From Candidatus Omnitrophota bacterium (GTDB lineage Bacteria; Omnitrophota; Gorgyraeia; Duberdicusellales; 4484-171), in contig JAIPGM010000001.1 of NCBI GenBank assembly GCA_021735655.1, positions 64,001 through 128,000 of the forward strand: DNA of 64,000 bases, written 5' to 3'. Positions 3,001 to 33,000 of this stretch are shown piece by piece; the first letter of the stretch is position 1; every line of letters begins with the position of its first letter. Position numbers and translations under genes: made by a program. The notes under the pieces were generated by a model. The model was not told the DNA's origin and did no database searches. It saw only the letters and a program-made list of their open reading frames with translations.

Positions 3001-6000
3001 ATAGGCACAAAACTAATTGTTCCGGGATTACGCGATACGCGCAATCTTTCTAGATCGTGGTTTATGGAAGAGCAGGGTGGAAAGCAAGTATTGCTTACGC
3101 CAATGAATCTTACAGCCAAGATGGTCGCTGAATCAGCTCGTCTAGTTAAAGATCTCTCGATCATGATGCCGCTTTTGCCGCATGTTCAGAATTATCTTTA
3201 TGAAAATAGTAGTGGTTGGAATTTTACTGATACGCTTCTTGGTGAGATGTTTGATATCCAGAAAATGCCGTCTGAAGTTTCCCGAGATGTCGTTGCTGCC
3301 ATTGAGGCCCTAAAAAAAGATCCATCTAAGGTAGATACCTTTATAAAGGAAAACATTAAAGATTCAGCTACCCGTGAAGCCTTAAGAAATAAGATCGATT
3401 TAATTAATAAGTCTTCTTTAGCTAATAAAAATCGCGAGATAAGAGAGTTAGTGATATCTACTTATACTGAAGATATGTTAACTGCTAGAAAAATTTCTAG
3501 TCATGGTATCGCCCGGCAGGCAATGGAATTAGGCCTTGATCCTAATGCTCCAAATACTTCGCTTTGGGATTTGCAAAAAAATATTGGAGTTGAACAGTTA
3601 AGAAATCAGCTTGATATTACAACTGGCCCAGAGCGTGAGCACATCTTGCAACAGATTAAAAACTTTGAACAAGCAACACCGTTTGAGTACAAGCTTAATG
3701 TGATGTCAAATTATTCATGGCAAGGTGCAATAACTGCTATGTACTTTGGTCCGACCATGCATTTTATAAGACCGATTTTAAACCCCGGTCTTAGTAAAAT
3801 GCCAGGCTTAGGTGAGTTTCAGTCGTTAGTTCAAGATTTCTTTGGTGATGGAGCTTTTATTGGCGATACGATGAGGAAAGTTGGTATAGACAGTATACCA
3901 TATATCGGAAAGCCAGTTGTTAACGCTGTTGGTAGGGTTATTGAATTCGGCGTTGAAGAAAATTTACGAGAAGTTGTCACTAATCTAGCATTTAGACAGG
4001 CCTTTGTTCAGATCGGCGGGTTTTTAGCTCCTCCGAGAAGAATGGATTATGCTTCTAATGCTGACTATTTTAGGGCTCAATCAGTTTATCAGCAGGCAAT
4101 GGAATGGATTGAGGAATCATTTGACGGTAAGGGGGTTTCGTTTGCTAGTGTCGCGGCTAATCTTAATTTAAATATTCCCACTCAAGCTCTTCAATCGCCA
4201 GGTAGTCCGACTAGTTCAGCTGTTTACGGTAGTGGAACCAGCCCTTTAAATAACGGCCGTGAATTAGCCACAGAGTTACTTACAGCTGAGGCAGATTATA
4301 CTGGTTATCATGATCCAAGTACAGTTGATATACAAACTGGTCCGGGAAGTTTTGCAACTTTGGCTGATCTTAGCTTGCCTTCATCAGGAACTCCAGCTGG
4401 CACTTCAGACTCAGCAAAAATAGTTTTAGTTCGTGGATTAACTAGGCAAACTGGTCAAGCTGACTTTGTTAATCCGGTTACCGGCGAAATTGGCATTGAT
4501 GCTTCCTTAGGAAAATATGATGCTTCTACTGGAAGGATAGCTCTTACCGATCAAGGTGGAGTAGCCGCACAACATGCTGCGGCTGAGTTTAGGGCGCACA
4601 GGGAAAACGCATCTAGAAAGGGTGTTTCATTAGAGGATTATAATACTTGGTTAGATAGTAATCCAACTGTGGCAAGAACAATCCATGATGGGGTTGTTTC
4701 TGATGGAGCCGTAGCACCGAGAAGTAATTTTGGTCTTTTTGCAACGCCGGTAGCTGATATTGTTGTTGAGGTTGGCGATAGACCAATAAAGATGAAGGGA
4801 ATAAAAGCTCCAGCTACAGCCGCAATTAATGGGATTTGGTCACTAAGCAGTGACAAGGAAAGAGTCACCACTTTAGATGGTTTAATTGGTTTTGTCAAGA
4901 GAGCGGTTATTCGAGATAAGGCTGCTGAGGTAAAGCTTAACACTGGCAGTGGTCAAATAGTCTTGACTGCTGACAATTTAATGGAATTAGAGATTTTAAG
5001 GGAACGTCTGGTTAATGTTCAAGGCAGTGTTAATACGGATGAGTTAATCAATAGAGCCCGTTATTCACAAGATAACGCGCGCCGTCTGGCTGCTCAACAG
5101 TCTTTAATTGAGACCCTTAACAATGATCAGCTATCAACACTTATTTCTGGAGAAGCAGTCGGTCAGTTAAAAATTGATTTTCTCCAGGAAGGTTTAACTC
5201 GAGCTATGGCTGGAAGGCCGAGTCAGCTAAGAAGAAAGATAGTTGGTGATGCTTTTGATAGATTAGGTAGTCGCTATAGAGATTTACCGCATGGGCTATG
5301 GTCTTTTTATCATTCTTTCCGATCAGCAATGAATCGGACTGAGTTCTATATGCATAAGGCTCAATTTAGATCTGACAGTGCACGTATAGATTTAGTTCAA
5401 AGGATTAGTGATTATCAAGATAGTCAATTCGGCCAAGGCGAGAGCAGCAGCCAAACTACGATTGCTTTGCAAGGTGTCTTACCTTATTATAGCCGTTATT
5501 TAAGGCGCGATGCTAATCGTCGCTTCTGGGCCCAGAAAGCTAACTCTGGTTTAGATTCTTATGGTCGCCTGTCACCATTACGATTGTTGCAATTAGCTGC
5601 CTGGAATCGGGAACTTAAATTAGCTGAATTCTACGTGGATGGATTTAAGACTGAGTTTGATGCTGAAGGTAAAATTGTAGTTAAGCCGCTAGACCCAACC
5701 AAAGATATAGCTTATGCTTTGGTCGGACGTAATGGAAGAGATTTTGATACTCCAATGCGCTGGGTTGAATGGCGGGCTGGTGATAAGTTGCAAGATTTCA
5801 TTTTCAGGTATGACCTTAAGGCTGATAAATTGCTTGAGTGGGCTTTTTATAAGGCAACGGATAATAGTGGATTGAAAACTTTAAGAAAGGCTTTAGGTCA
5901 TAGTGATGACCCTTATCCACCAATAGTTATGGAAATGAGCCAGCATTGGGGTGATCTTGATGATGACCCTGTTATTGCCCGTAAAAATAAACAAATTAAA

Positions 6001-9000
6001 GTTGCTAAGGTTTTTGAACCTGATTTTATTAGTGTTCCGGGCGTAGATACTCGTCGTCAATGGCCCATTGGCAAAGGACTAACCTTAACTCAAATCGATG
6101 ATAGCTTATATCAGTTAGAGGGAACATCTGATTCAGGAGAAGCGATTGACGAACCTATTGATTTTTCTGTTATAGGTAGTAGATCTCTAGAAGTGACAGT
6201 GGGCTCTGAAACTATCAAATTTTCTCGAGCTAAAAATAATGCTGCCATTGTAGTTACTAAAGCAGGAAAAGAAAGCAAGCTAACTGAGCACAATGTTCAG
6301 CTGTCTTTAAAGGTTGATGTTGATGGTAAAGAAGAAGAGATCTCAGTGACACTTGCAGAAATAGCTAGAAACGATAGCCTTTACCTTATATATCCTAGTC
6401 AGGCTCGAGGATATGATATTACAATTATTCATCGCAAGATGGGCGGACATCAGCTAACCATAAGGCCTTATGCCATTGATGTTTCTGGTAGTGATGATTT
6501 ATCGGATGTTGGTCCTCGTAGTTTGGTTGAAGATTGGAAAGATGTTTTACCTGAAGCAGAAGAGGCAACTGATAAACCTGGATTTAAGAAAGAAGCTGAT
6601 AAAGATGGTATTTTAGCTAGCTTAGAGGCCATCAGAGATGATGCAATGGCTGGCGATCCCGACGCTAGAGAAGCTTGGGGTCAATTAATTGATGATGGTG
6701 TGGCGGCTGGTCTTTGGGAATCTGCTAAAAAAGGTCCTAAATGGGATGGTTCTGGTCCGGCGATTAGTAGTATTGGAGAAGGTGACAATGGATCTGAAAA
6801 CCTAAGTATAGCTGGCAAATGGTCAAAACATCAAAAGATTAAGCAGATCGAAATGATAGTTCGTCTTAGTGATGGCCAGGAAGTTTCAGTTCCAGTAACA
6901 GTGTTTTATATTGAAGGTTTAAGAGCAAGCCATGTTGGTTTTTATGACGGAAGACCTTCTATATACTTAACTTACTATTCTGACTATTCACATGAGCTCG
7001 GTGAAATGCAGCGGCATTTACAGGCAATGGCTGACCTTGATTTATCAGCTACTAGCCGGACGGATATTGAGGAATATTATAGTAAGCTCACTCCTGAAGC
7101 CGCACGAGCTATCCATGATCAGGTTATTGGCGAGGCTATTGATGGTCTTATTAGTCAAGGTATTTTGCCGGGGAAGGATCCTTTGGCTGAATATGAGAAG
7201 TTTGTAGAGTTAAGGCATGCTCGTGAAGACCTTGAAAGAGCAACAACCAGTGAAGGTTTAGCTAAAGCTCACAAGAGGTTAAATGATTTATCTTTTGAGG
7301 CTAGTGATATGGGCATGAAGCCTAGCCGTGTTTTAGCAGTTGAAGCTGGAGTTGATCAAGAGCCGTCAGATAGCCAGACTAATGATAGCCCGTTTGTTCC
7401 TTCTAATCGCATACCTATGATACCGGGCTCTTCTTCACCAGTTGGCTTACCTAATCCTGTTCAGACTCCGCTTGGCCCAAAAGGACTTTCGCCTTTATCT
7501 ATTATTAGAAGGACATCAACTTTTATTACAAATTTAAGGGGTTATCTGGGTTTATCACCGGCTATAGCTGCTGAAGTAGGCGCTGTGCCGAGTGACAGTA
7601 GAAGACAAATAGATGCTTTAACAGCTAAGATTGACGATGAGAGTGATATAAGCTTTGGAAGATCAGCGAATTCGCCCGGCAAGACGGTGGTCCATGCCGT
7701 AATTGCCTTTGTACGGCGATGGATCAATTTTACAGAGGGCAAAATAGCAGTTGGATTTACAAATTTTGGTCATAAATTTGACCAATTTGAAAAAAGAATC
7801 AGCTCTTTATTAGGAAAAATAGGCAGAAATGCCACTTCTGAAAGCGAAAGAGGTGTATCTGGAAGCGCTAGGAGTGTATCTAGAAACGGAAGCCAGGCCG
7901 GAGTAGCTTTAGACAACGGAAAGGATTTAGAAGTCAAAGCTAACCCTGAAGATGGCCGCAGACCGTTAAGAAGAGCTGAGAGTAAGCTTATAGCAGGAGT
8001 AGATAGCATACCTAATAGTAGGGATGCTGAAGAAACTCAAGCTGAAGAGATTGGCTTGGGTGGTAATGGCAGTGGTTCACAAAATGGTGGTCAAGGAACT
8101 TTAGGCGGTTCGTCTATAGAGATCGAACTACCTGTAATTTTAGATTTACGACGTCTTCATGAATCCTTCAGACCAGTAGTAGTTGGCCATAATGCCTCAA
8201 AGGCTCAGGCTCCGCCTGCAAATTCAAGAAAACAAGCAAGTTTAATTTTCTATACCCACCCAATAACTGTACTTGCTTTAGGTTTTATCTTTTTAGGCTT
8301 AAAAATTCCTCAACTTTTACCAATATCCATATTAATAGCTTTAGGTTTATTAGCAATATTGCCGCTTTCTCGGATTCTACCAAACGTGGCCGGTGGGTCC
8401 TTGAGAGCGGCTTTTGATTTAAATCAATGGACCCATCCTACTGTCGAAGTTGCCTCTCCATCAACCTTCCTGGCAAGTGGGTCCCGTAATAATAGTTCCA
8501 GTAGCTCAATCCACACCGATAAGGTTGCCTCTCCAACTTCTAAATTGGTTGTTGGGCTTTCTGGAACTAGTCTTAATAGAGGGGTAAGTAGTAATAGTAG
8601 CAGTAAAACAGAACAAGGGGGTGCAAGATGGTCAGTAACATCAGATCGCTCAGGTTTCAACACTTGGTTGTGGCAACCGATGGAACGATTTTTGCATCAG
8701 CTAGAGACAGCTTTGACCGCATTGAGAACTACATCGTCAGCCGTTTTGGAGATGTTAAGCGCCAGGTTAACACGCGTTTTGAACCGGTTAGATCGGATGA
8801 GGCAGGATGGATTAAGAACCTTATCGGAGTTCCTCAGACGATTCCGATCTATCGGGCAAAGAACATTAGCGTTAGCTAGCGCTGAGAGAGGGTCCGTGGC
8901 AGGACAATTTTCTAAGGGGGTCCGTGGTAGACCACTCGATAATGGCCGAGCTAAAAGATTAGCATCTCGAGCTTTGTCAATAATTACTGCTTTAGCTGTT

Positions 9001-12000
9001 TTAGGTTCAGCTAATGTTGTTCAGGCAGCTGAAGCAGGTCAGGCAAGTGATAGCGAAGTAAATGTGGGGTTAGTTTTAGCAGTTGTTTTTGCGGTAGCAG
9101 CAGTTTTAGCAGGAATCAGTTTTAGAATTTATGCCGGACAGAGGATCAAAGATATTGAATCTAAAACTGGAATCCAAGATAGCGCAAGAATTACTAGAAT
9201 CAGAGCAATAATTGAAGAGTTAAAACAAGAAGCTCTCAGGTTAGCTCAAGTCGCTCGAGAAAATGCGATGATAAAGGTTCTAATAGCACCTCAGGGTGAC
9301 CCATATAGAAGACTTAGTGCTTCTGAAATAGAAAAATTAAGAGCTAACCAGAAACCAGATGTAGAGTTGAGATTGTGGGATGTAACTGTGAGCGGAACCG
9401 GAACCGTAAGAATAATTTATGGTTTTAGCGAGGATAGAGTTGATTTCATAGTCATTGCTACCGATGGCGTTGTTCGAAGACAAAGTTTACCACGCGATTA
9501 TGTAGTTGATTCTATTGTAAGCGATAATGTAATTGTCGATTTATATCGTGGGAACCTCAATACTCAGCGAATCATAGAACATAGCATATATCAACGCTTA
9601 ACATCAATTATTGGTAGCTACAACGCAGAATTAGAAGCTGCCCTTGAAGAGGCTGAAGCTAATTCAAAGCAAGCTAAAGAACTATTAGACAGTAACCAAA
9701 GACTATCAGCTCGTGCCATTCGTGCTAGAGCTCGTCAAGCTGCTAGCTTAGCCGGAGCAGCCATTGATAATGCTACAACCTTAATTGAAATCGCCATCTC
9801 ATTGAATGTAGCTAGATTAAGAGCTCGAGCTAAAGTCTTAGAGAGAGAAGCTCAGGCTACTTTAAGACAAGCTGAAAATAAAATACAGAGACCACTTGAT
9901 AATGGTCGAGTGAAAAATGAACCATTAATAGGTTTTAGTCCTAATGGTTTTCATGAAAGTAAACTATTTACAATAATAACGCTAGGTTTGCTTTTATTAG
10001 CCGTAGCAGCAACAGTGACCTATCCGATTTACGCGTTAATGTATTTATCAATACCGCTCGGTGGAACTATCATTCTTTATGCATTGCTCGCTTCTGCGGC
10101 AGTTTTCTTTTCTATTAATTTTATTAACCTTCTTAATAGGATTGAATATTATCTTTTAATCAGTCGAGCACCACAAGCTGAACAAAGTCTAATTAAGGCA
10201 AGGAACTATGTAGAATTTCAGGATGCAGTCTATGCAATAGCTAGAGAGGCTGGAATTAGCATTCCTCATATAGATAGTATAGGCCAAGCTGAGGTTATTA
10301 TTGATAAAGTTACTGCGTCGCTTGAAGCTAGGGATTTAGATAAAGAAAGAGTTCAGGGAATAAGAACAGCTTTAGAGATGTTATTTTTAGGCGATGGTTT
10401 TGCTTTCGATCTTTTCGCTGCAGCCGTCTATATGATATCTTATCGAGACGAAAATAGTAGGTATCCAGCTTGGGTAAGCGGGTATCAAGAGAATGTTGGA
10501 AGAGTATACTATTCCAATCATCGTAAAACTCGTTCTCATTTGGGAAGTTTCTATCCTTGGTTGAGCATTCTACCTCATGAAGCCATGCATGCATTTTTAG
10601 CTAGAGCTAATTTAATTGATGGCGGAGCGATCGGTGAGGAGATCGCTACCAAAGCTGCTCGTATGAGCGAAAACGTAATAATTAGAGAGGTAGTTTCACC
10701 GTCAACCGCTTGGGAATCTTACCTGAGAAATCATTGGGGAGAAGTTCAAGATGGCTATTCTCATGATGGACAAGAGGTAGAGGTATTAAATATCAGTTCA
10801 ATGGCCCTACGAGGAATTGCTTTAATTCGTTTTATTAGAAATTTACTTAGCTTGAGGCTATTTCAATTGAGAGAGCTAGCATCTTTAGCAAGAGTTATAT
10901 TATTAGGTACACCGAATACAACTCTTGGTTTAGCATTTGCGCTTGATAATGGAAAGAAACCTACTCGAGTATGGAAAAGAATGCCTAGTTTGCAGACGGT
11001 TTATGAAACAAGAGGCAACAGAATTGACCGTTTTTTCCGAGCCATAATGTTAGCTGAGACTTTTGAACAAGAGGAAAAGGCTGTTAGACTAGCTAAGAAA
11101 ACCCTTAACTCAGATGATTATCTCAAATTAATGAAAAGAATTATGGCTTCAGTTGAGGTTGTCGCTGATGATGATCAGACTGATAGTAGAGCAACTCCGC
11201 TCGACAATGGCCGTTCAAGAAGGGTAATACCTAGAACCTTATCAGTAATTGTTACCTTAGTTGTTTTAGGTTCAACTAAAACAGCCTTTGCTTCAGGAGC
11301 AGTCGCTGCCGGCTCAGCAACAGTGCCTTTTTGGGGTGTAGTTGCTATGATTGTTATGGGGCTAGCTTTTGCATATATGTTTGGTTTTGTAGTTTATAGT
11401 ATGATTCGTAGTGCCAATATTGGCGGCCGAGATGAAATTAATGAGTTAAGGGATCGGGTTAGAGAGTTAGGTGGAAGCAAAGCTTTAAGAGAAGCCGGAA
11501 CCCCTGAAGAACTTATTGGAAATCTAAACAGTAAAGGCCAGGTTAGTGAAAACGAAATAGAAGGAGAGCTTGATGTAGTAGAAGCTCAAATTAGGAACAT
11601 TGAAGAAAGTAATAGTTCAAGTTGGTCCCAAGATCAGTTAGTTAGCTTAGAGGGCTATAGAGATGAATTAAGAAGAGAACTACTTGAAGCACAAGAACGA
11701 TTAAGAGTTTTAGAAGAAGAAATTGCTGGAGATATTCGTGCTTTTGAAAGAGCTCATGAATTAAATGTACCTTATGCAGCAGATGGTGATTTAGAAGAAG
11801 CTCCTCAGCCAAAAACTGTAGTTGGTAGAACACTCAGATTAGCTGGTCAAATTGCTAAGGTAGCCGTGGTAGCTACATTTGGCATAATGGTTATTGCATC
11901 TCCGGCTACCAGTTTTGCAGGATCTACCTTTGGTCAGTCGGCAGATGGTTTGGCTATGGACCATAATTCAGATATGGATGATCAGGATATAGACATGGAT

Positions 12001-15000
12001 CATTCAATGGGAGCTGTTTTACCGAACACAGAAACATTAACAACTGATGAAGTAGTTTTTGATCCTTCTTCAGTTATTGATTCTTTGTCAGATCAAGCTG
12101 GGGTTGATATAGCCGACACAGCACATTTTAATAGAGAGCTTAGTGGAGCTAAAGATAAGGTTGTTGTGTTAGATTTTTGGGCTACTTGGTGTGGACCTTG
12201 TAGAGACGTGGCTCCACTTTTAGAAGAAATTGCTGAGTCTGATGATAATATTAGGTTATTGAAAATTGACATTGATGACAACCCTGAAATTTTTAATAAA
12301 TTTAAGGTAGTGGATAAGGTAACTGGCAAAGAATTAGTTCCTCAGATACACGTTTTGGTCCATAATCCTAAAAATGGAAATTGGGAACGAAGAGAAGCTT
12401 TGGTAGGTAAAAAGAGTAAAAATCAGATAGAGGCTAGCCTCAGGCCATACTTAGCTGGTTTGGCTAAAGCTGAAACAGAAAGCGATAAGCCGGCCAAGGA
12501 AGCTTCTGAGGGCGAAGCAAGTAGTGGTCATTTTTCAGTTCCTTCAGGGGAAGCGGATTCTAAAGATTTGGCCGAAAGAAGGATTGATGAGATAGAGAAA
12601 AAACTTGTAGCTGAAAAAGAATTAACTGAAAAGAAAAATAAGGCTGATCAAGCTTTTAGCAGCGGTGATTACAGAGAGGCTGCTGAGCTTTATGAGGAAG
12701 TTTTAAATTCGGATTTAGCTAAGGGAGCTTTAGAAGCAATCGCAAAAACAAAGTTGGCTGTTGCTAAGCAGAAAATTGAAGTAGGCGATTCCGATCAGAA
12801 TATTAAAACCACTGCTGTTGGAGATGATAAGGTAGCTCCTGAAAATGAGAGCTTACAGCAAGTTATAGACCAAGGTTTAAAACAAACATCCTCAGCGACT
12901 ATTAACGAAGCGTTAGTTAAGTTAAGAACATATAAGATTGAAGAAGGTAGCTTGTCTGATGAATCTTATAGAGCACTTAAGGCTGAACAAGAAAAAGCTA
13001 TAAGTTTGTTAGTTCAGAGAGTAAAAGCTGTTACTTTTGCTGAGCTCAAAATGCAAAGAGCAATTGAAGCTTCAAATTACAATAAAGCCATGAATGAAAT
13101 CGGTAATGTTTATGTAGAAACATCTACTGATGGTTTAACTAGAGCAATTACCGATGCTATTAATATTCAAGCTCAACACTTAGAGAGTGTATTGACGGCT
13201 ATCCACGTTGCAGACAGGACAGACAAGATTGATTTTGCCTTGAAAGTACTTAAAGAAAGTAAAGGTAAGAATTTACTCCCAGAGGAATTAGAAACAAAAC
13301 TTCAACAAAAAGTAGATAGAGCTATTGGCGAGCTCACAGCAAGAAAAGCCACAGTTGGTCAAGAGACTGATTCAATAAGAGCGCCACCAACTGATAAACC
13401 AGCTACTGAAGAAGCAGAAGCGTCCACAGATTATTCAAAGGTCGGTATTGAGCAATTGACAGAATTGGTAGATGCTAAGATTAAATCTCAACTTTCTCCG
13501 GAAGAGAAAAAAGTTTATGAGGCAAACAAAAACAAGTTAGATTATTTAAAGAAAAATCATCCGGATCTTTTTAAGAAACTTGTTGTTATTGCCGAAGACG
13601 ATATAAAGGCTTGGTTCGAAGCTAACCAAAAACCAATTGTTCAAGCTCAACAAACAGAAATACATAGAGCCGAAAATGTTCTTAAGCAATTCTTAACAAG
13701 ATTTGGCATAGAGTTTAATCAGCCGCGCTATGTAATGGTTTCGGAAAAATTACTTGATGGTCGCTTGGGCGCAGTTTATATTTTATCTCCGGATACAGTT
13801 ATTCTATCTGATAAATTTGAAGTTAAGCAGAAGGTTAGACCGCAAGGAAGGTCTCAGGGACGAAGCCTAGTCGCCCTTGAACCAGCTGGTTCAAATATCG
13901 AAGCTGCTAATCCTAATGAAAATTCTTTAGCTATCGTAGTTATTCATGAGAATCTTCATTTAGTTAAAAATTCTGGTTTAGGCAGCGATCAGATTAACGA
14001 AGGATTTATCCAACATACAACTGATATATTAGCAAAGCAAAATAATTTTAAAGTATCTCACGATCTATATGAACCGCAAAAGGCAGTTATTTATGCCTTA
14101 GAGGCAGAAATAAGTAAAGTTGCCGGAGTAAGCTTAGCTCAAGCTTACGATATGGTAGCCAAAGGATACTTATTAGGAGATACCAGTTTTATTTCAGCAA
14201 ATATTGGAGAAGGCTCCTGGGAAGAAATTGTTAGTATTTCTAATGAATATAGAGATAAAATGGCTTTTGATAATAATCCGTTGCTTTGGGATAAATATGT
14301 ACCTAGAGTAGCTAAAAAATTAGGGGTTAATGACGAAAGCTTAAAAGATCAGCCTAGAGGTTTGAGAGAGAGAGCTAAGCAGTCAGTGGTTGAGTTAGCC
14401 GTTGTTGTTGGAAAAGTTCAAGAGTCTGACAGCGTAGAGCCCGAAGTATCAGACCAAGAGTTACCTAAAGAAGAGGTCAAGAAGGCTGATGGTGATCAAT
14501 CTGTAGATGCTCAGGTTTATTCTTCAGCTCGAGGATTGAATTTAAAGGATAAACAAGAGGGCGAGCAGTTGCAGCAAGCATTCGCAAAAGCAGTTGTTGG
14601 CAATAATGTACCTGAAGAAGCGTTTGTTGTTACTGGCGATACAGATAAGAATTTTTCTGTTAAAGGCAAATTAAGTAATGAAGATGTTGTTAGTTATAGC
14701 ACTAAGAAGATATCTGAGCGCCAAGAGCAGGGATCTCTTACTGCTGGCAGTTTAATAAAGGTAAGAGAGGTTGGTGGAGATAAGAGTTTTCTCTGGCAGA
14801 CACATTTGGGTGATGTTTATGAATTTAAGGCTGACGGGACAGTAAGTAAACTTATTGATGCACGTGATCAAACGGCCTCTAAAATTAAGGTAAATCCAGC
14901 TGAAGAAGGATTGCTCGATACAATAGGCAGGCATGCTTATGAACAGATGCAGAGAGGAATTACGAAGGGATCTATTTTTAACTCTCAAGAGGAACAAATA

Positions 15001-18000
15001 GGTTTTTGGCAGAGAAAGGATAATAAAACTATAGCGGTTATTTATGCAGCTGCTGGCGAAAGAAAAGGTTTCGATGTAAGTTTTACTGAAGAAGTTCGTT
15101 CGGTTGAAGAGCAAAAAGCCAAGAAACTTGCTGATGACCAAGCTGCTGAAAAAGCTGCTGAAGTTAAGAAAGCCGCTGACGCTGAAAAACTTGCTGCTGA
15201 AAAAGCTGCTGAAGCCAAGAAAGTAGCTGATGCTGAAAAACTTGCTGCTGAAAAAGCTGCTGAAGCCAAGAAAGTAGCTGATGCTGAAAAAGCTGCTGAA
15301 GCCAAGAAAGTAGCTGATGCTGAAAAAGCTGCTGAAGCCAAGAAAGTAGCTGATGCTGAAAAACTTGCTGCTGAAAAAGCTGCTGAAGCCAAGAAAGTAG
15401 CTGATGCTGAAAAAGCTGCTGAAGCCAAGAAAGTCGCTGATGCTGAAAAAGCTGCCGAAGCCAAGAAAGTAGCTGATGCTGAAAAACTTGCTGCTGAAAA
15501 AGCTGCTGAAGCCAAGAAAGTAGCTGATGCTGAGAAAGCTGCTGAAGCTAAGAAAGTAGCTGATGCTGAAAAACTTGCTGCTGAAAAAGCTGCTGAAGCC
15601 AAGAAAGTAGCTGATGCTGAAAAAGCTGCTGCTGACAAAAAGATTGCTGATGAAGCTGCTGCTAAGAAATTAGCTGATGAGGCTGCCGCTAAACCAAAAA
15701 CCCAAAATGATGGAGCTAGGGGTATTCGCGCTCCGCCAGCTGCGGAACCAAAGGTTGAAGATCAGCCACTAGCTAAAGCAGAAGAAGCAGTTAGCCAAGC
15801 AATGGAGAAATTGGTTGATGCTGCTAATGCTTCAAATGATGCTGCTAATGCTTATTCCGAAGCTACCAGCAAAGAAGCTGAAGATAAACTTAATAAACTA
15901 GCTGGAGAGTTTGCTCAGTTAGTTTTAGCTAGGGATAATCAAGATGATCAGGTTGTTGACAACGATGGTCAGGTAAAGGCTAAGGAAGCCGAAGTAAGCC
16001 AGAAACAGAAATCAATAGCCGAGCAAGAGGAAAGATTAGAAAAAGCTCTTACTCCTCCAGAAATAAGTGAAGATTGGGAACAGGCTGCCAAGGAGAGGTT
16101 TGGTAAATATAGCCATAATTCTAGGGGTAAATATAATAAAAATAGATTTCATAGCCAGACTCGCACAGTTCCATCAGTAGCTTATGATCAACCAGAAGAA
16201 GATTTTCGTAAAGGAATTCATGAGGTTGTCGGTGAAGGCAAAGAAGCCGCTGCTTATGTTGATACTTCAGTAGTTCATCGTGGTAGTGAAGCGCGTGGTG
16301 CTGGTACAGTAGTTTTGATCTTTGCTGTAGATAAAAATGATTTTAATAAAAGAGTTTTAATATATGTTGATGCCAGCCGTAGACGCGGTATCGATTATAA
16401 TGATCAATATTTTGACTTAGAGGGTAATCAAGTTGAGCCTTTTGGAACAAGTGATAGCTTAATCATTAGGGTTGGCCAAGTTAGTTCCGACAAAGATGGA
16501 GAAATAAGCTTAGATTGGGGTGAACCTTACACTAGTTCTCGTGGCGAAATTAATGATATTTTTGGAAAATATAAACCTGAAGGTGAATTCGTGGCTGGAT
16601 CAGAAGCTCAAGCTAGCGAGCGATCAGCCAAAGATTTACAGGAAGAGTTAGAAAAAGCCGAAGGCGAATTAGAAGCCCTCAAGAAAGCTAAGGAGGAGTT
16701 AACTGGAAAGACAGCTGAAACTGATGAAGAATTAAAAACTAAACAAGCTGAGATTGAAAGATTAAAAGAAAACTTAAAACAAAGACAAGCCAAAGCTGCT
16801 GAACTAAAAAGCGAAACCGCTAAAGCAGTAGATTTGTCTATAGAGGCGCAAGATATAGTTAAAAAAGTTATAGAGGCCAAAGATGCTCCGTTAGAGGATA
16901 GGATTAAAGATCTTGATCAAGCTATTGACTTGGTTGATCAGGTAGCTGAAGTTGCTAGAAGTCTTTCAACCGAAGCGGATAATGAAGTAAAAATAGCCGA
17001 AGGCTTGGTTGATTCAGCTAAGAAAATTGAAGCCTATGCTATTAGTTTAAGAGAAGATGCTGAGAGGAAACTGGCTGAGGTAAAAGCCGCTGAAGAGGAA
17101 GCCCAAAGACAAGCCGAAGAAGCTAAAAAGGCTCAAGAAAAAGCTGAAGCAGAATTAAAGGTCAAAGAAGCTAAAGCCAAACAAGCTTTAGCTGAAGAAG
17201 ATAAGGCTAAGGAAGAATTAACCGAAGCTCAAGGTAAAACTGAGAAAGTTACCACTACCCAGACCGTAAGGGTAAATATTAATAAGCCGCGTTGTTGTTT
17301 AGTAAGATTTTTTATTGATCGTCCAAGATTTGTTCGTGGTTGGGTGCAAGATGGACATTCACGTCGTTGCGGCAGACAAACTTACCGTCAAGGTTTCTAC
17401 CCTGCAGAAATTTACGTAGAAACACTAGTAGCCGTAGATACAACTGATTTAGAGAAAGCCGCAGCTGATAAAGCTGAAGCAAGAAAGACAAGTGATGTGG
17501 AAGTTGAGACTGCTAAAGGAGAGGTTGAAGTTGCTTCAACGGCTACCCAAGAAGCTGAAGCTAATTATAATCAAGCAAAAGCGCAAAGGGAACAAGCTGA
17601 AAAATATTTAGAAAGAGCTAAAGAACTTGAACAGGCAGCTACCCAATGGCGCAAACAAGTAGAAAAAATAGCTCAAAGAGCTCAAGAGTTAGTTGACCGG
17701 GCTCAAGAATTGGAACAAAGAGCAAAAGAAGCAAAAGAGGCCATTGAGGCGTACAAAAAGGCTCTTTCTGAAGAAGAAGGGAGCGGTCAGCCTAAAGGGC
17801 CTGAAGTAGGATCCTTTTATGAGAATCATCCATTTTGGTTTTTCTTCTTACTTTTAACCCCCGGATATCTTTTCGGAATATGGGCTGCTATACGTCGTCG
17901 AAAGGGACTTTCAATCATTCCTGGACGAGGAAAAAAAGTTGTTATAGCTCTTATTGCTGTTGGATTAAGCTTAGCTTTGGCTGATAAGGCTTCTGCTGCA

Positions 18001-21000
18001 GACGTCAGCTTAGCAACTATGGCTGTAGAGAGCTACATGACTTTACAGAATACTACTGGTGGAGTTACTGGTTTTGGAACTGGTTATGCATTAGGAGAAG
18101 CTACAGTAGCTTTATTCTATTGGTTGTTTGGTAATAAAGATAAGACTGAACAATCCCAACCAATCCAACCTCAAGCAGATCAAGCCCCTTCTAGTCGCAA
18201 GAAAGGAAAGAAAAAAGTTGGGCCAGAAGTAACTGAAGAGTCTGATTCTGTTGTACATGAAGATGGTGATAGTGAGGACGGTGAAATGGGTTCTGGAATT
18301 GCCACTTCAAAAGGCCGGAAAGATAGTTCGCAGTCAGCACTTTCAGATATAAAAGTAAAAGCTGAATTAAGTCCTTTAGGCAGACAGGTACGTATTATTA
18401 TTGCTAGTAAGCAGGGTACCAAGAAAGCTCTATTGGATGAGATTTTTGATTTAGCAAATCTTCCGATATTTATTGCTACTGAGGAAGGAAGTTTCTATAT
18501 TTACTATAACCCACGAACCAATCAGTTGATTATTACCGCTGAACGAAGCATTAGTAATAATCCGGCTAGTGTCGGTATGGTACCGGTGAGTTCATACGGC
18601 CAAGCAGCGGAATTAGAGACTCTTTGGGAAAGTGAAGATGGGACTGAAATGGCAGCCCTTGAGGGCGAAGTTGATGACTTCGATGATGTTACTATAAACA
18701 ATATTCGTGGCATAAACAGTTATCTTACTCATCGTAACAGTATTGTTATTATTACCAGTGCTTCTGATCCAGAAGCTTACGTGCAGGATGGCGAGGATAC
18801 AGTCAATGCTGTTATAATCCAGTCAAGTAGGCGAATTGTTCATAACTCAGTTTCCTTGATGAATGCTCTTGGTCAGATAGAAGAGGTTAATGCGTTCTTA
18901 ATTTTAGGGACATCTTCTGATTGGATTACTACAGATGAAGATGGTAGAACTTTTATCCATCGCGCAGTGAAGTTAGTAGGTCGCGATGGTAATCGTATTC
19001 GTATGGTCGTTTTGGATTTTGATCAACCACTTGAAGTTCATTATGGAGTAATTCGTTTGGGACGACCGACTAACACTAAAAATATTCAGCATACCATAAT
19101 ACCTTTATCGCGTAAGCTTGGTTATGAATGGATTGCAAAACATAAAATTGCCGCCAATTTAGTTTTAGTTGATGCACACGTCGCTGTTCCGGATAGCTTT
19201 TCGTTTGTCCAAGATGGTCATGAAGATACGCCATGGATTAAGAGCGCACGTAAGCCTTGGACTATTCGAGGTCCACCCGGTTCGGGTATCCAATGGTATG
19301 AAGTAGCTCCGGGGACCTATGTTATGTTTGTTCAGGGCGCAGGTCGACAAGCCCGTATCAGAGCTGCGGTTGAGAATTTCGTTGCTACTCATCGGGCCGA
19401 AGACGGAACAGCTAAACCAGTTGTTGTCAAAATCGCCGATGGCTCACAGGGTGTAGGTATAGCAATGTTCGGTGTCGAAGAATACGATAACGAGTTAGAT
19501 TTTATCGATGATGCCGTTCAAACTATCCAGGGTTTTCTTAGTGAAGGTCACAGTGTTATGCTTCAAGAACGTGAAATACCGGTTAATGTTGCGGTTAGTG
19601 GCCAGGATTCAAATTATCGTGTCTTTATATCTCGCAAAAACGGAAAGCCAGTTGTAACCAAAATTGTGGTCCGTACTGGTCCTTTTTCGAATGATCCAGT
19701 TAACATTAGTCAGGGTGCCGAAACTATAAGTTTTGAAACAGAAAGCTACGCGATGCTTGGTTTGACTAGCGATGAGCATGCTCGTAAGCGTGAAGCTATT
19801 GAGTCAGCAGCTTTAGCAATGTTTAAGGCTTTAGATGCACAGGCTGATAATGATGCTCTTTATGAAGAAACAGAACGTAGCCAACAAGATTTTGCAAGTG
19901 CCGATATAATTGTTGTTGAAATTGAAGATGCTAACGGCGTTAAGCAGTTCCATCCTAAGATTATTGAAGGCAATGGTACCAATTCAGGTGGTTTTTGGCA
20001 TCTTGATGAATACTATAACAGTAGTTATAGCAGTAAGGGTCGTCAAACAACCGAAAGGGGTTTAGCTATCAAAGAATATGCTGAAACCATAGCCGCTCGT
20101 GCCCGCGCCTATCGTCAACGCCTTGAAGGGAAAGAAGGGGCAGCATACCTTGAACATCTTATGACTACCGCTGTGCAAGATGGCAATGGTTTGGCTGTTT
20201 CTGAAGATATTGCAGTTGATGAAGCCGAATATGATGCAGCGGTTGTTCTTATCGGAGGCTATGTTGATTCTCAGGCCTTGGCTATTTTACAAGCAGCGAC
20301 TGAGAGTGATCCTGCAGTTGCTTTTGTTTGGGTTCGTTGGTCTGGTGAGCTTCGTCGTCGGAAAGGTGTATTATATGTTCAGGATGGCGTTCGCTATCGC
20401 GAGGGCAAATTAGAAGCAGTACACTATGCAGCACCTATTGCTGTAGGTATGGTGCATGCTGCTGGCACTGTCAGCAATAAACAATTACGTAGATTAGGCA
20501 TAACACCACGTACTTGGAATACACGTGTTGAATTTTATATGCATCATAAGGCAGCTACTGCTTATATTTTACGTCAAGCTGGCGTATCAATGCCGAAAAC
20601 ACTTGCTTTCTTGCCGGGTAGTAACAGAGGGCCAGCTCTATTACGCGACGACCCCGATACAGTTATTGTATCTAAGAATGATTTACGTAGAAGAAAAGCT
20701 GCTGTTCGAGTAAGGATACGTCAACGCGTAAGTGAACTTTCAGAATTCACCACTGGCGCTATTGTTAAGCCGGCTAACCGTTCACGTAGTGAAGGCGTTG
20801 AAGCAATCCCTTATACTGGAACCGAAGCAACCATCGATGCTATTACTGATATGATTATGGCTCGTTTGCTTAAAGGCGAAAGTCTTATTCTCCAGGAAAC
20901 ACAATTAGCAAGATCAATCGATGGTTTATATGGTATCGGAAAAACTAGACACTTGGTACGAGCCTTCGGTATGATTGATCCGGTAACTGGGAAACCAGTT

Positions 21001-24000
21001 GTTTTTGCCATCAGATTTGATCCAGGACATATGCCGATCGGCGGAGCCGATAGTATTGTAGTTAACGCTACCCGTCATACCTTGACTGCTGATAAGTACC
21101 ACGGTTATACACTTGAAGAAGTTGCTGCTATGTGGGGTATGGATCCGGAAAGCTTACGCAGCAGCATTGAGCAGTTATTCATTGATGCAGTTACTGCAGT
21201 TGCCTCAACGGTTAATCCACGTGGTGTCAGTCAGGCTTGGATTACGACCGATATGATTATCGATGAAACAACCGGAAAGCCGGTTCTCGTCGAGATGAAT
21301 GGTCGTCGTTCAGCTCAAATCTTTGGTACTGAGAAGCACAGATCAGAACTTGCTCGTTCAGGAAAGGCTCCGGCACGTAGTTATACTGCTACTTTTACTG
21401 ATGCTTTAGCTGCGAAGGCCAAGAAACACCTTAAGGTAAGTATAGAAGAGACTTCGACAGCAGCAGTTCCTTTAGACAACGGAAGTAGTCATAGAGGATT
21501 GTCTATACCGGTATTTTTAGCTGGAATTTTAACTTTGGGTTTAACAAATATTGCTTCGGCTGCCGAAAAAGGGCAAGCAACTAATTCAGATAATCCGCTA
21601 TTTGCTTTATTTTTAATAGTTGCTATACCTTTAGCTGTAGCAGCTGTTGTATTCTTATTTGCTATAGATTGGGATTATTATTTTGGTAAATTAACCAGGC
21701 AATCGCCTCCCAGCGAGAGTGAAACCTCCCCGATAGGGGATGATAGATTAGAAGTTGATGGGGCTAGTTCATCCGTGGCTGCTAGCCCTACTTCTTCTAG
21801 CCATAGGGATGAGCCTCATCGACCTCTTGACAACAACTCTGGAGAAAAACGAAGCAGATTTTCTTTAAGATCTCTTTTCGGTGGAACAGCAGATAGCTCT
21901 TCAGCTTCTAGCTCTGCTAGTAGAACATCTCGAGAAACTCGTGCACCACCAGTTTTAAGAATTGTAATAGCTTGGGCTAGCGCAGGTAACATAGCCGCAT
22001 TAAAGGCTTTAGTCGAGCGTATTAGGCAGGATTTAATTGATGGATTACCTTTTGATGTTGTAATTGAAGAAACAGTAGTCTTAACTAAATTAGATAAATA
22101 TAACCAAAGTCATTTAGGCGCAACCAGAGATTCTAGCGTTGGTCAGTATATCCTTCCTTGGCCAAATTTAAAAACTAAAGCTAACGTACCTACCTTAGTT
22201 ATTACTGATGCTGATTTGGGCGGAACATCTGAAGATGATTCTGGAAAACGATCAACAAATAATAGCCTTATGGGCAGGACCTATGCTTGGCAGAATATAG
22301 CACTGGCCACTACTTGGAAATTCCGCAGTTCAAACCAAGGTCTATCAGATAGAAATAATCGCAATAACATATTACATGAACTCGGCCATCTTTTTGGAAT
22401 AAATCATGAGTGTGGCTGTAAAACCTGTATTATGCATCAAGCTGACTCAACCGAAGAAGTGGCCCGGACGAAACAATTTTGTAAGTCTTGTAATAACGAA
22501 TTAACTAAAATAAATGGTGTTAAATCTAAAAAAACACCACTTGATAACGGTAAACAAACTAGACAATCGTCTCCCAGCGATAGATTAGAAGTTGATGGGG
22601 CTAGCTCATCCGTGGCTGCTAGCCCTACTTCTTCTAAACCTTTGGATAATGGAATATTCGGAGTAATGTTTAGACAAAGAGCCACAAGGATTGATGCTGA
22701 TGGCCATGGTAATTGTTCTGCTGTGACTATTTGGGCTAAGAGAGTTGAGGCTTGGGATGGTTATTTTTCAGAGGGAGAGTCTTTTTATATAGCAGGTATT
22801 GAAGATAGTAGCGATTCATTAGGAGAAAGTACAGATCCTAGGTATGTACGAACTGTAGAAAGATCGGAATCTTCAGATAGGTCTCAAAGAATAGTTAAAG
22901 TAGAAGTCGCTGAGGGTGAATTCACGATTATTGAATTAGAAGACGGATCGGTTATTGCTCATGCCCATATATTTCCAAGACAGGGAACGGCCGATACTGC
23001 TTATTGGCAGCTTATTAGAGTGTTGGATTATTTTACCGACTCCAGAAATGGTTTTGATCAAGATAGCTTAAGAATTGCTTTTGGTTGGGAAGAACGTTTA
23101 GATGGATTTGGTTACGATGCAATTACTTTTAATAGAAGGTTGTTTAGAACTTCGGATTATATGGGGGATGGTCGAGGGCCAGTTTATAGTTCAGCTATGA
23201 CTTGGGATCAACAAGTCGCCGCAGCTGGTCTAGTCGGAGTATTACCTAGTGGTACCGAGCGCATTAATGAGTTAGAGCAGTTGGCCAGAGACAAAGGCTT
23301 TGAAGTTATTTCTTCAAATACCCGTCAATATACGCCAGATCCGGCAGGTTCCGGACAGGGGATGACCGCAACAGATATTAGCGTAACATCTAGTGATTAT
23401 TGGTTGTCGCATAGGCAGGCAGAATTTAGATTTCATTTACGCTTATCAGAAGATAAAAGACCGTTAGATAATGGTAAAGAGAGTGATTTACAGATTCCTC
23501 TTGATAATGGCCCAAAAGGACAGTCTGAATTAGCGGCTAATACCTTAGGCTCTCTAATTGCCGGATTAGTCGCTGCACTTCCAGTTGTTGGGTTGGTGGC
23601 GGGCGCCTTAGCTTTAGTAGTTGTACTTCCGCCGGCAATAACAACAACGACCGCAGTAGTAGTAATCGCAGTAATTGCGGCAGCAGGAATCCTATCGCTT
23701 CCTTTTGCCTATATCTCAGTAATGTTTTTGTCACAAGGCTTAAGAATTGCCATAGCTAATGTTGTTCATGGCGGCATAAGAGGCCCTACTGCTTTAACTG
23801 AACCTATTGCTACTCCGGGCAGTAATGTTTCAAGAAAAATTCCTGAATCAATTATGCCTTTAGCTCTAAGACATTCCATTAACCAGGTTCATGAACAAGC
23901 CCATCGTGATGGAAAAGATGAGCTTGGTGCTTATTCTGCTCAAGCAAAAGATTTCTTGGCTAAAGGAATAAAAGTTTTAATTCATCTTGGATTACTAATC

Positions 24001-30000: not shown

Positions 30001-33000
30001 GATATGGCCAAATTAGTTGAAGCTACTTTAACTAAGAAGGCTATAGAGGGAGTTGACACTGGCTTACGTATCGTTACCAAGGGTAAGTATTCTTTACTTA
30101 TTCGTCTTGATAAGAATACCGGAGACCCGATTGAGGGAGCAATTGAGAAATCAGCAAAAGGCTTAAAAGCAGCCTCGCGACTTTTCGGTAAAACTGAATC
30201 ACACAAGACCTTTACCTTTGAGGAAAAACTTGACCCGCGAACTGGTCGAAGCAGCGATGTGGCAAGACTAATAACTGATAAGACTGACGCAAACTGGTTT
30301 GGGCTTTATATCGTTGAAGATGTAACTCTTAGGCAAATTATTGCTGCTTTTACTGAAAATGGCACACTTTCCGGAATAAACGGCGTTGATAGTGGGTTAA
30401 GAGCCTTACAAAAAGAAGTAAATGTGATTGTAGTTGACGCTCAAGGGCGTCGCACAACCCAAGAAGTTACTCGTAGCTTATTCTTACGCTTTGATTTAGA
30501 AACTAAAAAGTTAATTGAAGGAATTGTTCAAACTGAGGATCCTAATACTGATAGATTGCGTCCGGATAGCCTTGAAAAACGTCAAAAGGGCCAGAGAATT
30601 ACTGATGATGATTATTACTGGTTTGTCCGCGATGTCAGAGAGCCAAAACCGTTTGATTTTGAAGGTGCTATACCGTTAGATTCTGGACGCATCATAATTG
30701 TTAATCGCGAGGATCCTAATGTTCCTGGGCTTTGGTATGTGGTTGATGCTGAGGCTGGCGATATAGTCTCAGCTTTCCGTCAGAATGGATCATTAAGAAA
30801 TATTAGAGGCCGGGAAACTGGTTTCCGAGCTTATCAGACTGAAGTTACCTTACGAGATGGTGATGGAAAAGCTATTTTAGATGACCAGGGCCAGGAAGTT
30901 AAAGTAACTCATACTTTACTTTTCAGGTTTGAGTTAGATGATCAAGGAAGAATTATGAAAGATTCTTTGGCTGAAGGTGTACTCCAGGCTGAGACTACTG
31001 AAGCTAAATTGCGTCAAGGGAAAGATGGCAAAGATGAAACTAATGATTATTACTGGTTTATTAATATGTCTAAAAGCCTTATATCGTTTAAGGTTACCAG
31101 CTATGATCAAGGTAAGTCAGTATTAATGATTTCTCTGCCGGAAACAGAAGCTGACAAAGATGGTTGGCGTCCAGTTAGAAGGTTAGAGGTTGATAATGCC
31201 AATCAGATTAAAGATTTAGCTGAAGCCTTAAAGAGAGCAGTTACTAATAATGATTATAGCGAGCTGGGTGAGAAAACTGACACACGGATTAAGATCGTTG
31301 AAGTGGGTAAAGACCGTCGTTACATTATAATGGATAGTAATGGAGAATATTCAATAGAGGTTCAGTCAAAAACCGAAAATGATGAAGAATATGTCTTTAG
31401 CGCTAAGGCCTTGGAATATGGTTATATTGATAAAGAGGGTAAATATTGGTTGTACCGCGGAAATTTAAAAACAGTTACAACCGAAGATGGCAATAATAAA
31501 CTGCTATCAATTCAGGTAGATGAGAAACTCAATCCAGTTATTGATCAGACCACCAAAAAACCTTTTACCCAAACCGTAACTGTAGTCGCGGCCAATAGCC
31601 AGGCAGTAGTTATCATATTTGGCGACAATGAGCTTAATGTTTTAGCTCGCAAAAATGGGGAGAGGATCGGTTACGGTCTTAAAGATAAGGAAGATGGGAG
31701 ATTGTATATCTTTACTGGTTATACTCGTAACGATGACGGAAGCTACTCTTTAAATAAATCGAGTGTTAAGTTACAAGATATTGTTACGATAACTGTTGGT
31801 TTTAAGCTTGTTTCTACGGCGATTGATGAAGAAATGAAACCGCTTATTGATCTAGACACCAAGACACCATACACTCAAATTGCTCCGATTATTGCTGCCA
31901 ATGATGATTGGGTAGTAATTTTAGTTAAAGATAATAAGCTTAATGTTTTAAATCGAGATGACGGGAAAACGATCGGTTATGGCCAGAAAAATCCTAAAGA
32001 TGGAAAACTGTATTTATATATGATTTATGAGATAAAAGACGATGGTAAATATTATTTGAAGAAATCACCGGTTGATTTAAAGGATACAAAAGTCGTAACT
32101 ATCGGCTATGAGCTTATTTCTACTGAGATTGATTCAGATATTAATATAGTAATTGATCAAGCTACTAAGAAACCGAGCACCCAATTTGCTCCGATTGTTG
32201 CTGCTAATGATAAAGAAGTAGCAATCCTGGTTAACGGTGATGAACTAGTCGTTTTAGACCGAAAGAAAGGTAAAGAAACTGCCTACGGCTATGTTAAAGA
32301 TAAAAAATTCTACCTTTATGCATCAATTGATGTGCTTAAGGCAATCGAAGCCGGTCGATTTTTAGAGACCAAACAAGTTGATCAGAACCTTAAACCGGTT
32401 AAAGATCCGGCCACCGGAGAAGAGATAGTTGAAAAAGTACCAGTAGTTGCTGCAGATAAAACAATTGCCGTTATCTTAATTGAGAAAGAAGCCCCGGGCA
32501 TTGAGAATTCACACACACTTAATGCTTTAAGCAAGGCTACTGGTAGAAAAGCACGCTACGGCTATAAAGACTTAGCCGATGATAGTCTTTATTTATTTGA
32601 TTTAGTTGAAAAGATCAAGGTTGTTCAAGCTGGTCAAAGCTTAACTACTATTAAAATTGATGAAAAAGTCAATACGCTTAGTACTGAAACATTACCAGTA
32701 GTTGCCTCTAATGATGCGGAAGTCGTCATTCTGATCGACAAAGAAGCGCCGGGTTATCCAAATACTAAAACTCTTAATCTTATAAATAGAGAAACCGGTT
32801 TAGTCACTCGCTACGGCTATAAAGAGTTAGATGATAATAGTCTTTGGTTGTTTGATTCAATTGAAGCACTTAAAGCTGTCCAGGCCGATCAAAGCTTAAC
32901 TACCACTAAGATTGACAAAAAGATAGGCACGCTTGAAACTAAAGAAGTACCAGTAGTTGCTGCTAATGATAAGGTGGCGGTAATCTTAATTGATCGACCA

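Follow-up and report, generated by a model that had tools for sequence, protein, structure and literature searches.

What is a block of nearly identical short repeats doing inside the coding sequence of a bacterium, and is it free to change in length? The question is raised by a 64,000-nucleotide (nt) stretch of a Candidatus Omnitrophota genome (contig JAIPGM010000001.1, positions 64,001 to 128,000), here called the window, in which a tandem repeat array at 15.1-15.7 kb encodes a peptide rich in alanine and lysine. A first reading of the letters, referred to below as the original prediction, had described a perfect, irregularly alternating 36/51-nt repeat that was probably length-variable and resembled the helical repeats of surface proteins. 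In the present study, the array was dissected by direct sequence parsing and by Tandem Repeats Finder, and its product and surroundings were compared with known systems. With moderate confidence, we conclude that it is a recently expanded or homogenised in-frame repeat within a giant open reading frame (ORF), and that it encodes a helical spacer belonging to a predicted exported arm of the product.

Results

Direct parsing resolved 13 in-frame + strand units over positions 15139-15696, namely one diverged 51-nt unit, ten near-identical units and two diverged 36-nt units. The 36-nt core GCTGCTGAAGCCAAGAAAGTAGCTGATGCTGAAAAA, which encodes AAEAKKVADAEK, is found eleven times; the first copy (15154-15189) is degenerate, with five mismatches to the consensus, non-synonymous ones among them, and the other ten are near-perfect. 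The 51-nt form carries the 15-nt insert CTTGCTGCTGAAAAA (LAAEK) as an invariant prefix, which stands before five of the ten near-perfect cores and is identical in all five. The sub-units are 18-nt hexads and the 15-nt pentad. Six of the ten cores have the same sequence, the remaining four each having a single private nucleotide change (GTA>GTC, GCT>GCC, GAA>GAG and GCC>GCT), and the pairwise differences are 0-2 nt. In these respects the original prediction was exact, both in the number and order of the two forms (Table 1) and in the extent of their divergence. It was also right that the reading frame is kept: all unit lengths (36, 51 and 123 nt) are multiples of three, and every unit is in frame with the + strand ORF. 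The word perfect holds for the protein, the DNA being near-perfect only.

The alternation of the two forms is not fully irregular, as had been thought. Tandem Repeats Finder returned periods of 18, 36, 51, 87 and 123 nt, the best of which was 123 nt (51+36+36; 96% identity, 3.1 copies), and the unit order is partly a higher-order repeat, [51][51-36-36][51-36-36][51-36][51]. The longest exact direct repeat measures 117 nt at an offset of 123 nt, which is far beyond chance, and 82 nt are repeated exactly at an offset of 36 nt. Because the units are exactly identical over 82-117 nt, slippage or unequal recombination is expected. A homogeneous centre with diverged edge units is the usual pattern of arrays shaped by slippage or unequal exchange. 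The proposal that near-identity records recent slippage is upheld in a wider wording, as slippage or recombination-driven expansion or homogenisation. Tandem Repeats Finder detected no other short-period array of high identity in the window.

The + strand ORF that carries the array is very large. Frame +1 contains no stop codon in 21,333 codons, against 1,300-2,700 in each other frame. Because it is stop-free across the window, the whole 64 kb is the interior of one giant ORF, and the array is an internal linker of that gene. The ORF list for the window has a single entry of 150 amino acids (aa) or more, a minus-strand ORF of 198 aa. It is contained in the giant ORF over its full length and is rejected as a gene; as the original prediction had stated, it is only the reverse complement of the repeat.

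Within the giant ORF, the array falls in a soluble segment of ~1,980 aa bounded by transmembrane (TM) helices (Table 1). Three Lys or Arg residues are present in the 15 aa that precede the opening helix and none in the 15 aa that follow it, and the 15-residue loop joining the closing TM pair, RRRKGLSIIPGRGKK, contains seven and is predicted to be cytoplasmic. Because this bias agrees at both ends, the segment is predicted by the positive-inside rule and a hydropathy scan to lie outside the cytoplasm. It includes a thioredoxin-fold domain ~900 aa upstream of the array, for which the NCBIfam matches of thioredoxin/DsbE/ResA type were all below cutoff. Directly upstream of the array is an orphan globular module with an HExxH motif, which had no match in Pfam or NCBIfam and no homologue among 5.8 billion protein clusters; its AlphaFold2 model (mean predicted local distance difference test score, pLDDT, 35) was unusable. 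The motif gives only a hint of a peptidase function. No internal paralogue of the exported segment was found on self-comparison with the whole ORF.

The array product consists of 193 aa (aa 5040-5232), of which 41% are Ala, 24% Lys, 16% Glu and 8% Asp. Its charges are in exact balance (46 Lys and 46 Asp+Glu, net zero), and 48% of its residues are charged. At i/i+3 and i/i+4 there are 72 pairs of opposite charge, compared with 43±5 in shuffled sequences (z = 5.5); same-charge pairs number 12. Val, Leu and Ile account for 10% of the residues and occupy every heptad position; their Fourier power is 0.02 at a period of 3.5 residues, 0.01 at 3.6 and 0.15 at 3.67, compared with 0.8 at periods foreign to coiled coils. 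Two marks of a stable single α-helix (SAH) are present, as a hydrophobic seam is missing and the opposite-charge pairs at these spacings exceed the shuffled number. AlphaFold2 placed helices at aa 5030-5128 and 5139-5229 (pLDDT ~65-75), with the next helix from aa 5256. The break between the first two is read as a fold-back artefact, because its sequence is identical to stretches that the same model predicts as helical elsewhere. At the moderate confidence of this prediction, the array appears to form a stable Ala-based single α-helix held by salt bridges. Fully helical, it would measure about 29 nm, and steps of 12, 17 and 41 residues would correspond to ~1.8, 2.6 and 6.2 nm.

Each of the four substitutions that distinguish the ten units is synonymous, and only 22-30% of the possible single-nucleotide changes in the core are of this kind (P = 0.002-0.008 under neutrality); therefore, the array peptide is under constraint. 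Relatives in which copy number could be compared were sought widely. For the 500-aa upstream flank (aa 4541-5040), no orthologue was present in the 5.8-billion-cluster protein database, GTDB genomes, JGI metagenomes or IMG/VR, and blastn against phage records gave no match. By degenerate back-translation, AAEAKKVADAEK was absent as an array from JGI metagenomes, GTDB genomes and IMG/VR. Two metagenome contigs that did match the peptide are unrelated, with one chance copy in the charged tail of ribosomal protein S16. No close relative of the giant ORF was found in any collection searched.

When 1.84 billion representatives were scanned exhaustively with the array by HMMER, 99 proteins matched, 16 of them at E <= 1e-10, and no giant protein was among the 99. 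The best match, P0128, is built as (AAVEAKR[VI]ADEK)n and agrees with the array unit at 9/12 positions. Between it and its cluster-mate P0227 (98.6% identity) the sole differences are indels confined to the array, and one of these is an exact 12-aa unit. A hexad theme, A-[ED]-A-K-[KR]-Φ, is common to the top matches; P0128/P0227, P0137, P0131 and P0140 share it with the window array, together with periods of 12 or 24 aa. Their hosts, uncharacterised as to the array, are unrelated metagenomic proteins (OTU protease, caspase or secretin+TPR) of 300-1,400 aa, and their arrays are without the pentad insert. Similar arrays adjoin unrelated domains (OTU, TIR+FGE-sulfatase, secretin+TPR, LysM and caspase), which is the expectation for a convergent, generic spacer, and the relation of the P0128-type arrays to ours is most likely one of convergence.

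Table 1. Positions of the array, its surroundings and other features of the window
Feature	Position (nt)	Residues (aa)	Strand	Description
Host ORF	1-64000	>21,333	+	Frame +1; runs off both ends of the window
Core array	15190-15624	145 aa	+	Ten units of 51, 51, 36, 36, 51, 36, 36, 51, 36, 51 nt; core AAEAKKVADAEK with or without LAAEK insert
5' degenerate edge	15118-15189		+	AKKLADD, then QAAEK-AAEVKKAADAEK; diverged 51-nt unit at 15139-15189
3' degenerate edge	15625-15696		+	Two diverged 36-nt units, AAADKKIADEAA and AKKLADEAAAKP
Pro-rich helix terminator/linker	15691-15768		+	KPKTQNDGARGIRAPPAAEPKVEDQP; contains GIRAPP (15721-15738)
Spurious ORF	15042-15638	198 aa	-	TTG start; reverse complement of GCT/GAA/AAA-rich repeat, itself repetitive, (SASATFLASAAF)n
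Opening TM helix	11839-11895	3947-3965	+	Signal-anchor-like (GRTLR, hydrophobic core, ASPATSFAGS); Kyte-Doolittle
Closing TM pair	17836-17994	5946-5964, 5980-5998	+	Kyte-Doolittle
Thioredoxin-fold domain	12115-12435	4039-4145	+	WCGPC; PF00085, E = 5.5e-16; in the same predicted exported segment
Orphan globular module	13621-15105	4541-5035	+	Directly upstream of the array
HENLH (HExxH) motif	13945-13959		+	In the orphan module; NEGF 13 residues later
M54/reprolysin-like Zn-peptidase signature		~7405-7502	+	Pfam
GT48 FKS-type (callose-synthase-type) 1,3-β-glucan synthase module	39202-40695	13068-13565	+	E = 4e-56
PLDNG motifs (examples)	8932-8946, 21469-21483, 45538-45552, 60838-60852	2978-2982, 7157-7161, 15180-15184, 20280-20284	+
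RAPP motifs		4460, 5243, 7314, 8710	+	Motif count
RGPP motifs		6423, 14079, 16909	+	Motif count

The translation of the giant ORF has an ordinary globular composition. Ten distinct Pfam families lie in frame, among them thioredoxin, M54-like peptidase, GT48 glucan synthase, HAD, methyltransferase, PEP-utilizers_C, NUDIX, HATPase_c and phosphofructokinase (PFK), and a Kyte-Doolittle scan gave ~40 TM-like hydrophobic segments. The flanks of the GT48 module are rich in TM segments (aa ~12300-14000). The module stands at the same distance (~27% identity) from proteins of 3,700-4,500 aa in metagenomes or Omnitrophota metagenome-assembled genomes (MAGs) and from oomycete or plant callose synthases; the MAG proteins, which match at 25% identity, are the only named prokaryotic relatives and have the GT48 module alone in common with the giant ORF. 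A phylogenetic marker gene is absent from the window. As judged from domain content, the host ORF matches the multi-enzyme, multi-TM giant proteins described for Omnitrophota. Among the domains commonest in these 'multi-enzyme' giants are HATPase_c, methyltransferase, HAD, NUDIX and PPDK-type domains (bioRxiv 10.1101/2023.11.21.568195; 10.64898/2026.06.07.730766), and 80% of giant proteins of at least 10,000 aa are sequence singletons (West-Roberts et al. 2023; Nielsen & Lui 2026). The host ORF has in common with them a size above 10,000 aa, dozens of TM helices, many distinct Pfam domains and singleton status; HATPase_c, methyltransferase, HAD, NUDIX, PEP-utilising and sugar-metabolism domains are shared, whereas the SecA-DEAD, C39 and HEAT domains of such giants were not seen in the 64-kb window.

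Several further observations concern the host gene. Cys makes up only 0.21% of the 21,333 aa, despite the WCGPC thioredoxin domain. A second recent in-frame tandem duplication (38552-38737; 93 nt x 2, or 31 aa, with 5 nt and 3 aa differences) follows a TM helix directly, in the membrane region upstream of the GT48 domain. At 32467-33223 (aa 10823-11077), an ~85-aa domain (VILIDKEAPG…RYGYKDL…LTTTKIDKK…) without a Pfam match stands in three tandem copies of ~69% nucleotide identity, and this triplication is an older event. A second multi-domain query had a single match, P0127 (L004; ENA ERZ27254754, contig k141_1883966), a 2,023-aa ORF that takes up the whole of a 6.1-kb contig; with the part of the window from PEP-utilizers_C to HATPase_c, it shares 32% identity and the same domain pairing.

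A short peptide, [KRT]-PLDNG-[KR], recurs 33 times in the giant ORF (LDNG: 33 observed, 0.37 expected). Its codons vary freely at every position; therefore, selection acts on the peptide, and a DNA-level element or recoding signal is rejected. None of the 33 copies is inside a Pfam domain, and several are 6-17 aa from a domain edge. The surroundings are linker-like, rich in R, Q, S, P, K and T and poor in aromatics. In eight cases the motif is followed within 45 aa by a TM or anchor-like helix, and in one case it is preceded by such a helix at that distance (P = 0.0004 for the asymmetry). To judge from this distribution, the motifs may be junctions or cleavage sites of a polyprotein; no report of PLDNG as a junction motif was found in the literature consulted on giant genes. 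P0127 has a recurrent motif of its own, [GS]SSPV (6 copies against 0.04 expected, spaced 105-504 aa), which suggests that other giant proteins have lineage-specific junction motifs. In addition, signal-peptide-like segments are found inside the giant ORF at aa 3734-3770, 3940-3975 and 5975-6003 (nt ~11200-11310, 11818-11925 and 17923-18009), with a basic n-region, a hydrophobic core and a small-residue AxA-like site (e.g. …ALADKASA|AD). Some of them come directly after a PLDNG motif, an arrangement that would suit units each equipped with an export signal.

Motifs of the ribosome-arrest type are also in excess. RAPP occurs four times against 0.17 expected and RGPP three times against 0.13, a more than 20-fold excess, and PPP does not occur in the giant ORF. 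These tetrapeptides are among those most avoided by bacteria, and in Escherichia coli RAPP is found once and RGPP never. They block the formation of peptide bonds and so bring the ribosome to a halt; stalls of the SecM type are relieved by the pulling force of export. GIRAPP lies 8 residues after the array, and SIRAPP (nt 13372-13389, aa 4458-4463) follows the preceding helical stretch. GIRAPP may be likened to the arrest motifs GIRAGP of SecM and …CIRAPP of ApdP. The IRAPP sites could be export-coupled translational pauses, or merely Pro-rich terminators of helices. Two of the RGPP sites (aa 14079 and 16909) were set aside as linker-located signals; they are probably structural, since they belong to a paralogous 'INPNxxRGPP…IFE' domain motif that is also present in P0127.

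Discussion

In the explanation that we favour, 18-nt hexads and a 15-nt pentad are combined into 36- and 51-nt units, and these into a 123-nt super-unit. The product, a single α-helix of ~193 residues rich in Ala, Lys, Glu and Asp, would probably serve as a semi-rigid spacer between globular modules of the exported segment, a role like that of domain II of TolA or of designed (EAAAK)n linkers. Slippage or RecA-dependent unequal recombination would add or remove units with the frame intact, each event changing the spacer by 12, 17 or 41 residues. By analogy with the E. coli tolA tract and with the P0128/P0227 pair, the array is likely to be length-variable, and spacer length might be tuned adaptively.

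Among known systems, the tolA tract of E. coli is the closest analogue. It encodes the Ala/Lys-rich α-helical domain II in units of 15 and 18 bp, 8-16 copies of which were found among 234 isolates; contraction reaches 6.9e-5 and is RecA-dependent (Zhou, Michiels & Aertsen 2012, PMC3477136), and copy number alters tolerance to detergent, osmotic stress and phage (PMC3477136). As is predicted for the array product, TolA domain II is an α-helical spacer rich in Ala, Lys, Glu and Asp that is anchored in the inner membrane and extends outside the cytoplasm, and the 15- and 18-bp sub-units of tolA have the sizes of our pentad and hexad. The composition is similar as well (A41 K24 E16 D8 in the array, A40 K19 E15 D5 in E. 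coli TolA from NC_000913.3; ~53% raw identity), but homology is rejected, as all BLAST alignments vanish under composition-based statistics and no family model matches; the TolA and TonB_C models found nothing in Pfam or NCBIfam at E up to 1. Furthermore, the units of TolA are imperfect and each is unique, whereas the ten of the array are near-identical and arranged in higher orders of 36, 51 and 123 nt; and TolA is a 421-aa component of the Tol-Pal system, whereas the array is in a giant multi-enzyme ORF without TolA domain III. The relation is one of functional analogy, not membership.

The amino acid tandem repeats (aaTRs) of Borgs are alike in being perfect at the protein level, with partial or degenerate flanking repeats and an A-rich coding strand (Schoelmerich et al. 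2023, PMC9879509). They are enriched in extracellular and membrane proteins, and constraint on the peptide was reported for these in-frame repeats too (PMC9879509). Most of them, however, are intrinsically disordered and belong to ordinary-sized genes of archaeal extrachromosomal elements, whereas the array is predicted to be helical and is part of a giant ORF; the window is a single 64-kb ORF and not a multi-gene archaeal element, and the array was not assigned to this class.

Designed helices offer a further comparison. The (EAAAK)n and Ala-based Glu-Lys helices reportedly go back to Marqusee and Baldwin in 1987 and Arai and colleagues in 2001. With SAHs and designed helices the array shares the missing hydrophobic seam, the dense i/i+3-4 pairing of opposite charges and the prediction of a long isolated helix, and its proposed role is likened to theirs as spacers or constant-force springs between domains. 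With 48% charged residues and 41% Ala, it is nearer to the Ala-based designed helices than to natural ER/K SAHs, which are typically far more charged; unlike all of these, it is encoded by near-perfect DNA repeats.

Constraint on the peptide bears on the alternative that survives best, namely that low-complexity sequence expanded neutrally in a tolerant linker between domains, its length without role and its helix merely harmless. Four synonymous substitutions out of four do not suit such an origin, and the exact charge balance and the salt-bridge excess likewise point to peptide constraint; in the tolA analogue, moreover, copy number does alter the phenotype. We hold neutral expansion to be unlikely, while giving it weight on three counts: the flanks are orphan sequence that offers no conservation for comparison, arrays of this type arise independently beside many unrelated domains, and near-identity could mean recency instead of selection.

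An error of assembly, in which the copy number or unit order was mis-resolved, is much less probable. K-mers up to 99 nt do recur within the array, which is unambiguous only at k >=118, but at k = 127 the path is unique, owing to the four unit-private substitutions, the ordered 51/36 pattern and the diverged edges. The frame is kept within the 64-kb ORF, and even with a wrong count the repeat itself would remain.

The resemblance to Ala/Glu/Lys helical repeats of surface proteins, drawn in the original prediction, stands as far as the array is predicted to be helical and non-cytoplasmic; it goes no further, as there is no match to a surface-protein family and no coiled-coil periodicity. The label is loosely right, and TolA domain II is the better analogue. 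It is very improbable that the array serves to vary the size or antigenicity of an exposed surface protein (cf. streptococcal M, alpha-C and BAC; mycoplasma Vlp/Vsa) by which antibodies, phage or host recognition are evaded. In-frame perfect repeats in a predicted exported segment would be in keeping with such variation, and among Gram-positive surface-protein repeats the model of the IgA-binding protein BAC (GBS_IgA_bnd_BAC) does give a weak match, but at 19.5 bits against a cutoff of 1700 bits; the PDB sequence search with the repeat gave no match, neither a cell-wall anchor nor a lipoprotein signal is associated with the array, and it stands midway in a giant multi-TM enzyme fusion. Least credible is that the repeat multimerises the giant protein by forming a coiled coil of two or three strands, an idea to which the long predicted helices and their folding back as a pair in AlphaFold2 might lend colour, and which is rejected for want of a hydrophobic periodicity at 3.5/3.6 residues, for the scatter of the few Val, Leu and Ile over all heptad positions and for unit lengths (12 and 17 residues) that are not multiples of 7 or 11.

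Several points weigh against the favoured explanation, that of a recently expanded helical spacer in an exported arm. The predicted topology comes from a simple hydropathy scan and the positive-inside rule, and the modules flanking the spacer are orphans without fold assignment. The AlphaFold2 model, for which a single sequence was the input, is of moderate confidence only; a charge content of 48% is below that of canonical ER/K helices, and the stability of a monomeric helix is not assured. The instability of this particular array is argued from analogy, and its four private substitutions indicate that it was stable long enough for point changes to arise. Strict nucleotide tandems in long Omnitrophota genes have in addition been characterised by Nielsen & Lui as 'short, locally stable tandems' (bioRxiv 10.64898/2026.06.07.730766).

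The observations on the whole ORF can be joined in a bolder scheme, which we offer as a doubtful one. Here the bacterium would be predatory or attached to a host, and the array would be a length-adjustable ruler governing the distance from the membrane to which an exported enzymatic arm of a giant polyprotein extends; the SecM/ApdP-like GIRAPP motif would couple synthesis to export, and the ORF would be cut at the 33 PLDNG motifs, the repeat-bearing unit (aa 3735-7157) being one product of ~3,400 aa.

Conclusion

Taken alone, the array is one more in-frame repeat for a helical spacer; it is a useful strain marker and a natural example of an (EAAAK)n-like linker, and not a surprising one. Its value comes from its context, for in 64 kb of giant ORF no other nucleotide tandem has been active recently, and this one is placed in a predicted exported arm, where variation in copy number would give a testable handle on selection for the reach of that arm. 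The 33 PLDNG motifs and the excess of RAPP/RGPP are possibly more interesting than the array itself. Whether and where giant proteins are cleaved has been asked by the authors who described giant genes, and these motifs are concrete candidate sites for the questions of cleavage and translation; they also bear on how a membrane protein of more than 21,333 aa may be translated and exported in an orderly way.

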